A DNA stretch of 64,000 nucleotides from Escherichia phage teqskov, in the sequence record NC_054934.1; one strand, given 5' to 3'. The position numbers were made by a program, and so were the translations under genes. The notes beneath the pieces are model-generated. The model had not been told where the DNA came from and made no database searches. It saw nothing but the letters and a program-made list of their open reading frames with translations. Within the stretch, counting starts at the first letter, position 1, and every line of letters begins with the position of its first letter. Positions 10,633 through 11,973 of the stretch are shown here, one piece after another.

Positions 10633-11087
10633 TGGAATTTAAAGACTTTTCAACGGGTCTTTATGTAGCAGCTAAGTTTTCAGAATTAACACTTGATGCG
10701 CTGGAAGAACTCCAGCGCTCTTTACGTGTTCCTAATCCAGTTCCTAGAGAAAAAATTCATTCGACTATATGTTATTCAAGAGTAAATGTTCCGTATGTTC
10801 CATCAAGCGGAAGTTTTGAAGTAGCTTCTTCTGGGCATTTAGAAGTATGGAAAACACAAGATGGATCTACTCTTGTACTTGTACTAGATTCTGAATATCT
10901 GCGCTGTCGACACATGTATGCGCGGGCGCTAGGTGCTACACATGATTTTGATGATTACACACCGCATATAACATTGTCTTATAATGTTGGGCCCTTATCA
11001 TTTAGCGGTGATGTACAAATTCCGGTCGTATTAGATCGTGAATATAAAGAGCCTCTTAAACTCGATTGGGCAGATGATTTAAAATAA
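10629..11087 (+). CDS. 57B: Conserved hypothetical protein gp57B
   Basis: 152 aa, position and size as T4 57B. Confidence 0.7.
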
Positions 11088-11099
11088 CTTCATAAAGTT

Positions 11100-11129
11100 G
11101 TTTACACGCTGATGAGGTAGTGATACTAT
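11100..11129 (+). promoter_or_regulatory. T4 early (sigma70) promoter; -10 lies inside an inverted repeat (PeSL-like cassette)
   Basis: GTTTAC, 18 nt spacer, TGaTACTAT; inverted repeat gatgaggta/tacctcatc at 11111-11138. Confidence 0.6.
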
Positions 11130-11159
11130 TACCTCATCAAAATTAATTAGGAAAATAAA

Positions 11160-11417
11160 ATGAAAACTTATAAAGAGTTTGCTACAGAAACTATTATCAC
11201 TGAATCTTCTCATGGTATGGAAGTAAAGCTTGGAATGGCTTTAGCTGAAGCTGAGCGTCTTTTTTCTCGTATTAAAGAACTTGCTGCTGCAGTCGATCCT
11301 TCATCTTTTAAAGGAGACCAAACTAAAGTTAAAGCACTTTTAGCATTATGCTCTGATGCAGGAGAAATCGCTAAGAACGGTTCTAAGATGAAGAAACGAT
11401 TAGAAGATTTAAAATAA
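11160..11417 (+). CDS. Internal-protein-like ORF with capsid-targeting N-terminus (MKTYKEFATE)
   Basis: 85 aa; N-terminus resembles T4 IP capsid targeting sequence with I/L-x-E cleavage motifs. Confidence 0.55.
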   Translation: MKTYKEFATETIITESSHGMEVKLGMALAEAERLFSRIKELAAAVDPSSFKGDQTKVKALLALCSDAGEIAKNGSKMKKRLEDLK

Positions 11418-11429
11418 TTTCACAAAGTT

Positions 11430-11459
11430 GTTTACACGGGGTTTTAGTAGTGATACTAT
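11430..11459 (+). promoter_or_regulatory. T4 early promoter (PeSL-like cassette copy 2)
   Basis: Same GTTTACAC...GTAGTGATACTATTACC module as at 11100; preceded by duplicated junction gatttaaaataa. Confidence 0.6.
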
Positions 11460-11495
11460 TACCCTATCAAAACAAATGTGAAATTGGAGAATAAA

Positions 11496-11729
11496 ATGAA
11501 AACGTATCAAGAATTTATTGCTGAAGCTGCTGATGTAAAAGTTGAGTTTATTTACATTGGCAAGAAAGATAAAATGGGCGAAATGCCTCATGGAGTTCTT
11601 CGTGATGCATTAGATAATTTCGGTCAACTCGGTGGTGAAGAGTTTGGTGATTATTTTGTTATCTATGGACCAGAAAAAGTCATCGAGAAATGGGCTGATA
11701 AATATAAATCAATTTTTCGTAAAAAATAA
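11496..11729 (+). CDS. Internal-protein-like ORF with canonical capsid-targeting N-terminus MKTYQEFIAEA
   Basis: 77 aa from ATG 11496; GGAGA SD; N-terminus matches the T4 IP targeting sequence as remembered. Confidence 0.6.
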   Translation: MKTYQEFIAEAADVKVEFIYIGKKDKMGEMPHGVLRDALDNFGQLGGEEFGDYFVIYGPEKVIEKWADKYKSIFRKK

Positions 11730-11759
11730 GTTTACTTTTAGATAGGGTAGTGATACTAT
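11730..11759 (+). promoter_or_regulatory. T4 early promoter (PeSL-like cassette copy 3)
   Basis: GTTTAC then TGATACTAT; perfect inverted repeat gatagggta/taccctatc at 11741-11768 flanks the -10. Confidence 0.6.
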
Positions 11760-11787
11760 TACCCTATCTACTACTGAGGAGAATAAA

Positions 11788-11973
11788 ATGAAACGTTGTG
11801 AATTAATTCGAAATGTTGCTATTGCAATTTCTGCTTCCGCTTTTAGTTTTTCAATGTTTGTTGGATTTATATGCGGATTATTAACTACAGCAGAAAATGT
11901 GTTTTCACTTGTAGTAGCATTTTTAATTGGTTTAATCGCTATCGTTATGGATAAAATTTCTAAAGGTGAATAG
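11788..11973 (+). CDS. Small hydrophobic (membrane) protein
   Basis: 61 aa, mostly hydrophobic; GAGGAG SD. Confidence 0.45.
   Translation: MKRCELIRNVAIAISASAFSFSMFVGFICGLLTTAENVFSLVVAFLIGLIAIVMDKISKGE

Follow-up and report, generated by a model that had tools for sequence, protein, structure and literature searches.

Three promoter-hairpin elements as probable linkers of gene exchange at the internal-protein locus of a T6/PST-like Tequatrovirus

The promoter-hairpin linker system at the internal-protein (IP) loci of T-even phages is already known, and the locus described here adds no new principle to it. Arbiol et al. (2010, PMC2839356), citing Repoila 1994 (EMBO J 13:4181), describe elements at these loci that resemble promoter-early stem-loops (PeSLs), together with shuffling of the IP genes, and Comeau et al. 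(2014, PMC4122927), citing the same work, ascribe promoter/stem-loop shuffling to the T-even IP loci. The T-even elements are regarded as analogues, not homologues, of the original PeSLs of phages RB49 and phi1 (Arbiol et al. 2010, PMC2839356), and a PeSL consensus, TTTACW-N17-TAYWAT, is given for phages PST and T4 (Comeau, Arbiol and Krisch 2014, PMC4122927). Once injected, the internal proteins inhibit Type IV (GmrSD-type) restriction enzymes of the host, and each acts on a single enzyme variant.

The window, by which we mean the whole 64,000-nt stretch of Escherichia phage teqskov (NC_054934.1) that was analysed, belongs to a Tequatrovirus near T6/PST; PST has the same ipV-ipVI layout and is 95.7% identical to the window. 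The genes of the locus run in the order 57B (Acb1), ipV-like, ipVI-like and tRNA.4, with the elements in the gaps between them:

10629 to 11087, + strand: 57B, encoding the Acb1 anti-CBASS protein, conserved left anchor of the variable locus (Pfam PF23474 Acb1, 2.7e-60; PHROG 755).
11160 to 11417, + strand: ipV-like gene for an internal protein of 85 aa (PHROG 3499 'internal head protein', 3.7e-50; ipV in PST).
11496 to 11729, + strand: ipVI-like internal protein gene, 77 aa, ATG at 11496 (PHROG 8111 'internal virion protein', 1.8e-50; ipVI in PST).
11788 to 11973, + strand: tRNA.4-like gene for a small membrane protein of 61 aa, conserved right anchor (PHROG 1692; tRNA.4 in PST and T4).

The product gp57B is annotated in PST, T4 and ASO78A. 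Both small proteins begin with a capsid-targeting sequence, MKTYKEFATE in the 85-aa protein (ribosome-binding site AGGA, 11149-11152) and MKTYQEFIAE in the 77-aa protein (GGAG, 11486-11489), and the likeness between them is limited to the first 10 residues. They have the marks of T-even IPs, being small proteins of the 57B-tRNA.4 locus that share an MKTYxEFxxE-type N-terminus and are otherwise unrelated. The original prediction of three promoter-plus-stem-loop cassettes around two IP genes is borne out in this respect, both genes matching PHROG IP families at about 1e-50. Minus-strand ORFs at 11079-11213 and 11409-11591 were set aside as mechanical artefacts opposite the IP genes.

The module GTTTAC-N14-GTGATACTAT is present in three copies in the window, all on the + strand and all where they had been predicted, with starts at 11100, 11430 and 11730 and start-to-start distances of 330 nt (element 1 to 2) and 300 nt (element 2 to 3). 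A 17-nt core, GTAGTGATACTATTACC, is identical in all three elements (11117, 11447 and 11747); with as many as 3 mismatches permitted, the 64 kb still yields the same three matches only, with 0.15 expected, and none of 100 shuffles gave three. Over 39 nt the copies form a family with 77-79% identity, and a repeat search extends the likeness of the first two:

11100 to 11129, + strand: element 1 promoter, with -35 GTTTAC(A), TGn and -10 TACTAT at 11124-11129 (TTTACA-17-TACTAT).
11430 to 11459, + strand: element 2 promoter, with GTTTAC(A), TGn and TACTAT (TTTACA-17-TACTAT).
11730 to 11759, + strand: element 3 promoter, with GTTTAC(T), TGn and TACTAT (TTTACT-17-TACTAT).
11072 to 11147, + strand: direct-repeat copy 1, 76 nt, 83% identical to 11402-11477.
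11402 to 11477, + strand: direct-repeat copy 2, 76 nt, pairing with copy 1.

Besides the end of the upstream ORF and an A/T-rich TTCAyAAAGTT, the 76-nt repeat takes in the -35 and the -10 with the spacer between them, and the right arm of the hairpin. An upstream junction had been predicted to be duplicated at 11081 and 11411 with a single difference; the duplication is real, but the copies of gatttaaaataa... begin at 11076 and 11406 and differ at two positions (C/T and T/C). This junction spans the last four codons of the upstream gene, DDLK-stop in 57B (11076-11087) and EDLK-stop in the 85-aa gene, and element 3 is without it because no gap separates its -35 from the stop codon of the 77-aa gene.

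All three elements fit TTTACW-N17-TAYWAT, so that their assignment to the PeSL type, as proposed from the sequence, holds in the form that Arbiol et al. gave it for T-even phages. They also show every sequence feature of the UP/-35/TGn/-10 architecture of T4 early promoters (Hinton 2010, PMC2988021). The looser pattern GTTTAC-N18-TANNAT occurs at 16 sites in the window, 16/16 on the + strand, with 0.25 expected, and an extended T-even early-promoter consensus is common to the three elements and the 13 other sites. The likeness of the three copies is thus in part that of a general early-promoter consensus, whereas a significant hairpin around the -10 is found at only 6 of the 16 sites and the 17-nt core only in the three elements of the locus. 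These counts and the shuffles rule out a chance origin of the repeat.

From their consensus and from T4 expression classes, the elements are predicted to be T4-type early promoters. Early promoters of T4 itself have presumably been mapped upstream of ipI and tRNA.4. The record of phage ASO78A annotates a T4-type early promoter at the position of element 1. In the supplement of the T4 omics paper, 57B is classed as 'middle' and ipI, tRNA.4 and the tRNA genes as 'early', so that in T4 the change of RNA class coincides with the orthologous elements; the main text of that paper and the DksA RNA-seq paper make no mention of these genes.

Each element folds into a hairpin that encloses the -10 box and is more stable than its shuffles (z from -3.0 to -4.4):

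11110 to 11139, + strand: element 1 hairpin around the -10, 13 bp with a 4-nt loop (MFE -17.4 kcal/mol, z -4.4); perfect 10-nt arms at 11110-11119/11130-11139, RNA stem 11110-11122/11127-11139.
11438 to 11465, + strand: element 2 hairpin, interrupted, GGGGU..UAGUA / UACUA..ACCCU (MFE -16.2 kcal/mol, z -3.0); the MFE includes an outer helix, 11428-11433/11470-11475.
11739 to 11770, + strand: element 3 hairpin around the -10, 14 bp with a 4-nt loop (MFE -18.5 kcal/mol, z -3.5); perfect 11-nt arms at 11739-11749/11760-11770, RNA stem 11739-11752/11757-11770.

In the 13-14-bp stems the -10 box occupies the loop and 3' arm. The prediction that the -10 lies within the quoted inverted repeats is accordingly right for copies 1 and 3 and not for copy 2, in which the right arm TACCCTATC is present, the left arm GATAGGGTA is absent, and the hairpin adopts another register, 3 nt upstream of that in elements 1 and 3. 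Elements of other phages with GGGCU.UAGUG / UACUA.AGCCC share the element 2 register, with a compensatory change of G-C to C-G. Stable stem-loops in or adjoining the promoter are likewise a feature of the PST and T4 PeSLs (-16.2 to -18.5 kcal/mol in the window), which as in the window are intergenic, AT-rich, placed past the upstream stop codon and followed by a Shine-Dalgarno sequence and start codon; according to the legend to Fig. 3 of PMC4122927, the stem-loop in PST sits just upstream of the promoter, whereas the stem in the window surrounds the -10.

Among 40 distinct elements from related loci, 32 have z < -2, and at least 8 different stem sequences are represented. Since the hairpin centre shifts by 3-8 nt between variants, no one structure fits all 40, and the covariation test was confined to the 17 elements in the register of elements 1 and 3. 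Within these 17, compensatory double changes occur at 5 of 13 pairs, 82% of cells are paired as against at most 62% with the partners slid, and the covariation score is 0.288 as against at most 0.107 when slid, a value that 0 of 500 shuffles attained. The stems thus covary, which shows that the hairpin itself is under selection. No known RNA family was matched in Rfam at E <= 1 between 10500 and 12500 on either strand.

Transcription from each promoter would start about 7 nt past the -10, inside the 3' arm, and therefore an element's own transcript could not form the hairpin. It would form only in read-through RNA from upstream, just past the upstream stop codon, where its most likely role is to attenuate read-through or to shield the upstream message at its 3' end. 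A rival explanation takes the 'terminator' half of the PeSL definition as primary and holds that the stem-loops serve mainly as terminators or attenuators insulating the cassettes, recombination being secondary. The position of the hairpins directly after stop codons and the covariation of their stems agree with this, as do the annotation of all three orthologous hairpins as rho-independent terminators by the ASO78A depositors (WebGeSTer, TransTermHP) and the finding that an RB49/phi1 PeSL stem-loop lowered lacZ expression to an extent similar to that seen with the rrnB T1 terminator. However, no T-run follows any of the three hairpins (tails CAAAATTAAT, CAAAACAAAT and CTACTACTGA), which rules out a canonical intrinsic (rho-independent) terminator with a G+C-rich stem and U-tract; a consensus terminator scan also made no call at any of the three, and strong intrinsic termination is therefore unlikely. 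Arbiol et al. moreover call the T-even IP-locus stems weaker and AT-rich. The nearest late-promoter consensus upstream of the locus on the + strand is at 10027, so that late IP synthesis may need read-through of the hairpins, and efficient termination would stop it. On balance we hold a mainly terminating role to be possible but not probable.

The comparison set comprised 40 related loci, in 36 of which both anchor genes were found. These 36 hold zero to three IP genes each, from 14 unrelated families, and one IP family sits in different slots in different loci. One relative lacks precisely one repeat unit of the window, an indel of 330 nt that is bounded by the 76-nt repeat. Phage R5505 combines T4 and window sequence in a mosaic with its joint at element 2, with 57B, element 1 and ipI up to its stop codon 98.5-100% T4-like and everything from element 2 onward 99.5-100% window-like, and a third relative carries a single IP gene in place of both, its right breakpoint being the GTTTAC of element 3. 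The left breakpoints of replacements lie where the ribosome-binding site and the capsid-targeting codons are conserved, the right ones at the -35 of the next element; whole bodies are replaced in this way between near-identical genomes, with sharp steps in identity (99-100% versus 33%). Alignment across T4-like genomes, the check originally suggested, thus finds cassette boundaries at the repeats in the indel, the mosaic and the element 3 breakpoint, and the window elements, like the PST and T4 PeSLs, adjoin indels and replacements between close relatives.

The elements themselves also bear traces of exchange. The same elements lie on both flanks of ipI in T4, the upstream one with hairpin and core identical to element 1 and a few differences in the spacer and upstream, and the downstream one a chimera of element 2 on the left and element 3 on the right; a further locus, L028, has elements with mixed arms. 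In two genomes the site is empty, a gap of 79-80 nt with exactly one element in it. Genomes with only 70% identity in 57B and 50% in tRNA.4 share a 102-aa IP cassette at 92% identity; in the recipient, elements of Tequatrovirus type lie on either side of this cassette, next to the element of the recipient's native type. The similarity of hairpin arms is 0.69 within a genome and falls to 0.56 between clades. The comparative breakpoints show gain or loss of whole units and replacement of bodies at the linkers, and the unit-length indel is consistent with excision of mini-circles between neighbouring elements. The coincidence of breakpoints and repeats is partly built in, because breakpoints of homologous exchange are visible only where homology exists. 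Because the left breakpoint lies downstream of the element, the element is not the sole linker, and shuffling is not always element-dependent, since 14 of the 36 loci have no element between 57B and the first IP gene, which overlaps the stop of 57B (ATGA), and some IP-IP junctions are just 1-2 nt long. Nor is the hairpin type strictly IP-specific: a scan of IMG/VR for the exact 17-mer gave 15 loci, of which only 6 were T4-like, the others being chance matches in unrelated coding sequence, and one of the T4-like matches precedes a non-IP gene.

We consider it highly probable that the three elements are paralogous regulatory cassettes of the T-even 'IP1-locus' type, each an early promoter with a hairpin, that act as recombination linkers. 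A cassette would consist of an A/T-rich region, GTTTAC, TGn, TACTAT within the hairpin and a ribosome-binding site, continued in the IP cassettes by about 30 nt of conserved capsid-targeting leader. Judging by the consensus and by T4 expression, unmodified host RNA polymerase probably transcribes the next gene from each element independently and in the immediate-early phase. The same 60-120 nt stand between unrelated bodies, in co-infecting relatives as well, and therefore the homologous recombination machinery of the phage uses them as portable linkers. As the comparative breakpoints show, a crossover between successive elements adds or removes a whole unit of gene and element, and coding bodies are swapped by two crossovers, the first within the leader and the second at the following element. 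The outcome is a compact array, free of any recombinase, whose injected counter-defence genes are interchangeable and which lies beside the anti-CBASS gene 57B/Acb1. As far as sequence comparison reaches, this supports the original interpretation of cassette shuffling; of the further proposal that the two genes were gained by cassette recombination, exchange at the repeats seems sound, while gain and loss are indistinguishable.

Exchange might instead be driven by homing endonucleases of the adjacent tRNA region, such as SegB, with the repeats marking the ends of conversion tracts. The segB gene lies about 2 kb downstream in T4 and PST, the window has at that position a GIY-YIG-like (T5orf172/MUG113) ORF that differs from segB, and Comeau et al. 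(2014, PMC4122927) report a contribution of homing-linked transfer and SegB-dependent preferential inheritance of the tRNA region. Homing leaves unexplained, however, the unit-length indels, the single-element empty sites and the cassettes that bring foreign-type elements with them, and as it could initiate exchange within the linker explanation it is compatible with the latter rather than an alternative; as the main driver we find it unlikely. Also unlikely is an integron-like array that has no recombinase and whose hairpin takes an active part in exchange instead of merely supplying passive homology, for example as a cruciform or RNA/DNA structure that a structure-specific phage nuclease such as endonuclease VII would recognise, so that the elements would be true recombination hot spots. 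The presence of n+1 elements for n genes, the empty sites, the movement of elements with cassettes between genera and the covariation are all compatible with such a role and do not require it, because plain homology and a role at the RNA level explain them equally well.

If an IP gene and its promoter had simply been duplicated in tandem, with the bodies then diverging fast and purifying selection on promoter and leader alone preserving repeats that have no part in exchange, this would account for cassettes so alike in layout and length (330 and 300 nt) and for conservation of exactly the functional parts (promoter, ribosome-binding site and capsid-targeting codons). It is nevertheless very unlikely, given proteins without likeness past residue 10, body replacement between near-identical genomes, the same body in different slots and in distant genomes, and chimeric elements. 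Finally, a palindromic operator at which a dimeric DNA-binding protein shuts off the early promoters would suit a dyad centred on the -10 box, a classic repressor position, but is scarcely credible, since the arms vary within the genome and between lineages with compensatory changes, as expected of a nucleic-acid structure rather than a conserved protein-binding site, several variants pair only through sense-strand G-U wobble, and the register of element 2 is shifted.

The window is a clean textbook case of published linker-mediated shuffling, with two cassettes and three elements; among its close relatives one shows an indel of unit length, another a replaced gene and a third a mosaic. The additions are modest: selection, as shown by covariation, on a hairpin without a terminator-type U-tract, the capsid-targeting codons as a second linker, and the one-element empty sites. 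As the IPs are enzyme-variant-specific inhibitors, the speed at which they are swapped bears on host range and on the design of phage therapy.

Among known systems, integron gene cassettes resemble the locus by analogy only, an analogy also drawn by Arbiol et al. (2010, PMC2839356). Both hold arrays of interchangeable single genes with n+1 linkers for n genes and an 'empty site'; unlike integrons, with their tyrosine-recombinase integrase and attI/attC sites, the locus has no integrase-like ORF between 9500 and 14000 (ORF list, Pfam and PHROG matches), its linkers are promoters and not attC sites, exchange is by general homologous recombination, and each cassette carries a promoter of its own. 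The RB49/phi1 PeSLs (Arbiol et al. 2010, PMC2839356) are nearer, being composite promoter and stem-loop elements in intergenic, hyperplastic regions, as in the window; stems overlapping the -10 form one of their five subclasses, and the cassette-plus-linker model is common to both. They differ in their near-perfect sigma-70 hexamers (TTGACA/TATAAT) and G/C-rich stems (GGGG...CCCC), and terminator activity and mini-circles were demonstrated there. With the PeSL-like elements of the T-even IP locus, as later authors describe them, the window shares the locus itself (57B-ipI-tRNA.4), the phage group, the combination of promoter and AT-rich stem-loop and the proposed role in shuffling; nothing substantive differs, the window carrying the ipV/ipVI pair of T6/PST type in place of ipI.

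The 2.1 kb around the three elements, which are early promoter plus hairpin modules, matches 845 phage records, with at least 80% of the query covered at one place in 205 of them. Escherichia phage vB_Eco_Some is the best match (99.0%), and identity to T6 and Yersinia phage PST is 95.7%. The gene order is gene 1, 57A, 57B, 85-aa gene, 77-aa gene, tRNA.4, tRNA.3, tRNA.2, a small ORF and the tRNA cluster.

10629..11087, + strand: 57B, anti-CBASS protein Acb1 (Pfam PF23474, 2.7e-60)
11100, + strand: GTTTAC of element 1
11160..11417, + strand: 85-aa gene, ipV-like
11430, + strand: GTTTAC of element 2
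11496..11729, + strand: 77-aa gene, ipVI-like
11730, + strand: GTTTAC of element 3
11788..11973, + strand: tRNA.4
14000-14554: 184-aa ORF closely following the tRNA cluster; its domains are MUG113/T5orf172 (GIY-YIG-like)
14916-15389: second internal protein (IP)-type gene, 157 aa, MKSYAQFLNE

The 85-aa and 77-aa proteins fall in the PHROG families 'internal head protein' and 'internal virion protein' (~1e-50), and PST annotates their counterparts as ipV and ipVI, respectively. Their N-termini, MKTYKEFATE and MKTYQEFIAE, are the T-even internal-protein capsid-targeting leader, and the two proteins are unrelated past the first 10 residues. 57B lies directly 5′ of the genes for these injected proteins; their T4 counterparts are inhibitors of GmrSD Type IV restriction, so 10629-11973 is a compact counter-defence cluster. 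GGAG, the target motif of RegB endoribonuclease, lies within the Shine-Dalgarno of the 77-aa gene (11486-11489) and of tRNA.4 (11778-11781), while the corresponding region of the 85-aa gene (11149-11154) reads AGGAAA without GGAG, as in T4 ipI, which suggests that adjoining cassettes may differ in early-mRNA inactivation.

The repeats described in the original prediction are confirmed with small corrections. The module GTTTAC-N14-GTGATACTAT is present at all three starts, and the 17-mer GTAGTGATACTATTACC, identical in all copies, is matched nowhere else in the 64 kb even at 3 mismatches (0.15 expected). The predicted duplication of the upstream junction is real but starts 5 nt earlier, and is spanned by a 76-nt direct repeat (11072-11147 and 11402-11477, 83% identical); the duplicated junction takes in the final four codons of each upstream ORF. 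The hairpin around the −10 is perfect in copy 1 (13 bp, −17.4 kcal/mol) and copy 3 (14 bp, −18.5 kcal/mol), placing TACTAT in the loop and 3′ arm, but copy 2 lacks the implied left arm and folds as GGGGU..UAGUA/UACUA..ACCCU in a register 3 nt further upstream (−16.2 kcal/mol including an outer helix).

GTTTAC-N18-TANNAT occurs at 16 sites in the window, all on the + strand (0.25 expected). Because these sites share the extended consensus tttcacaaa..GTTTAC..GTGgTAcTATacaactatcaa, the three copies owe part of their likeness simply to the early-promoter consensus, and the locus-specific features are the 17-nt core and the complementary arms. The extended consensus conforms to the UP/-35/TGn/-10 'uber' architecture of T4 early promoters (PMC2988021) and fits TTTACW-N17-TAYWAT, the consensus for promoter-early stem-loops (PeSLs) of the PST/T4 pair (PMC4122927). 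T4 carries an identical element-1 hairpin and core 5′ of ipI; another element separates ipI from tRNA.4. In a T4 time course, 57B is classed as 'middle' RNA and ipI and tRNA.4, just 3′, as 'early' (PMC9697503), a change of class across the orthologous elements that a working early promoter there predicts; we infer that the elements act as early promoters in teqskov. T4 ipI, ipII and ipIII are all classed 'early RNA, late protein' (PMC9697503 supplement).

A significant hairpin surrounds the −10 at only 6 of the 16 early-promoter sites, and the hairpin is therefore an added feature, separate from the promoter. Of 40 distinct elements taken at the corresponding intergenic sites in relatives, 32 reach a folding z < −2 despite many different stems (for example GAUGAGGUA, GAUAGGGUA, GAGGGCUAU, GGUCUAUAG, GAUGGGAUA and GUAGGACUA). 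Seventeen of the elements fold in register with copies 1 and 3; among these, compensatory double changes occur at 5 of 13 pairs, paired cells reach 82% (at most 62% with partners slid), and the covariation score is 0.288 (at most 0.107 slid), a value reached by none of 500 shuffles; copies 1 and 3 themselves differ as GA/UC and AG/CU at two neighbouring pairs. The hairpin structure is therefore under selection. The covarying arms argue against a protein operator. Strong termination by the three hairpins is unlikely, since all three lack a T-run after the stem, a terminator scan calls none of them, and the nearest upstream late-promoter consensus on the same strand is at 10027. In several stem variants it is only sense-strand G-U pairs that preserve the helix, a mild argument for a role at the RNA level. 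A transcript started at an element would begin within the 3′ arm, so that the hairpin would form only in read-through RNA from upstream; an attenuating or 3′-end-protecting role is our best guess from these features.

Further early-promoter-like sites with a strong hairpin around the −10 lie at 16118, 19595 and 22686. At the latter two, the downstream Shine-Dalgarno is partly paired by the 3′ arm (GGAG and AAGAG, respectively), so read-through transcripts would be translationally masked and promoter-proximal ones unmasked, as in the known regulation of T4 genes e, soc and 49. In four related loci (L005, L010, L021 and L036; IP-to-tRNA.4 gap, ~4665-4730) the pre-tRNA.4 element folds into a longer outer hairpin, CTCCATTTG...CAAATGGAG, covering the entire promoter and sequestering the tRNA.4 GGAG Shine-Dalgarno. 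Early-promoter sites 31888-31935 and 56825-56872, 25 kb apart, are nearly identical over ~45 nt (GTTTACAAGACTGTTCCTCTGTGGTAyTATACAACTATCAACTAC) and are another potential set of dispersed recombination linkers. The hairpin-promoter type of the three elements is not exclusive to IP genes, since one (GGTAGGGTAGTGATACTATTACCCTATC) lies ahead of a 72-aa gene lacking the leader, at a separate locus in a different T4-like phage (L041, IMGVR_UViG_641509422_000001, minus strand ~7135-7260). The 157-aa IP-type gene is arranged differently: a late-promoter consensus, TATAAATA, lies at 14872, a canonical G+C-rich hairpin with T-run comes 3′ of the gene (~15399-15425), and no hairpin-promoter element was found at 14872-15425. 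Only 6 tRNA genes were found in the cluster (13279-13978), with a ~200-nt gap (13695-13901) between tRNA-Ser and tRNA-Arg, and T4 and PST have segB inside the cluster instead of the 184-aa ORF.

Cassette boundaries were compared across 36 IMG/VR loci fetched via the 57B protein, to which PST, ASO78A, R5505 and T4 were added; both anchors (57B and tRNA.4) were located in 36 loci. At nucleotide level, sharp junctions coincide with the repeats in three of the closest relatives. L035 lacks window 11076-11405, exactly 330 nt or one repeat unit bounded by the 76-nt repeat. L034 has a single 102-aa IP gene in place of both genes, and identity resumes at 11730, the element 3 GTTTAC. Phage R5505 has T4-type ipI in place of the ipV body; its identity to the window drops ~20-30 nt into the coding sequence and resumes at ~11415, the left edge of element 2, giving a mosaic of T4 (98.5-100% through 57B, element 1 and ipI) and window sequence (99.5-100% from ipVI onward). 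The T4 downstream element is an element-2-left/element-3-right chimera, as would be expected if the ipVI unit is missing owing to a crossover in the shared core; mixed-type arms and a duplicated GATACTATTACCTCATCAA scar occur in L028 and L019, respectively. A 102-aa cassette is shared at 92% identity by genomes in which the 57B and tRNA.4 genes are 70% and 50% identical, respectively; in the recipient it lies between Tequatrovirus-type elements and beside the recipient's native-type element. Arm similarity is 0.69 within a genome and 0.56 between clades (Mann-Whitney P ~4e-10, on non-independent data).

The 57B-to-tRNA.4 gap ranges from 79 to 1663 nt in the 36 loci with both anchors and holds 0 to 3 IP genes from 14 families, which are unrelated outside the leader; the same family is found in differing slots with differing neighbours. 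In two genomes the site is empty of IP genes and contains exactly one element, whose left flank is of the 57B-proximal and right flank of the tRNA.4-proximal type. No element separates 57B from the first IP gene in 14 of the 36 loci, where that gene overlaps the 57B stop codon; some IP-IP junctions span just 1-2 nt, and in body replacements the left crossover falls in the ribosome-binding site and leader codons, outside the hairpin. Because of these junctions and crossovers, the elements are one of two conserved linkers, with exchange also occurring without them; homology-dependent breakpoints can show only where homology exists. Of the proposal that both genes were gained by cassette recombination, the boundaries at the repeats stand, but gain is indistinguishable from loss.

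The proposed match to the PeSL system of T4-type phages is supported, with element-less exchange and leader crossovers among the caveats. In its treatment of PeSLs, Arbiol et al. 2010 (PMC2839356) defines them in RB49/phi1 as the combination of a strong early promoter and a stem-loop, shows promoter activity, terminator activity and mini-circle formation, and refers to Repoila et al. 1994 for the T-even IP-locus elements, which it treats as analogues whose promoters are T4 early promoters and whose stems are weaker and AT-rich. Comeau et al. 2014 (PMC4122927), where it takes up PeSLs, extends them to PST/T4 and restates the IP-locus link. Since that link is published and PST has the same ipV-ipVI arrangement, the finding is a correct rediscovery of a known system, which this locus illustrates well. 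The analysis adds a little to it: the stems covary and have no U-tract, the leader serves as a second linker, and some sites are empty but for one element.
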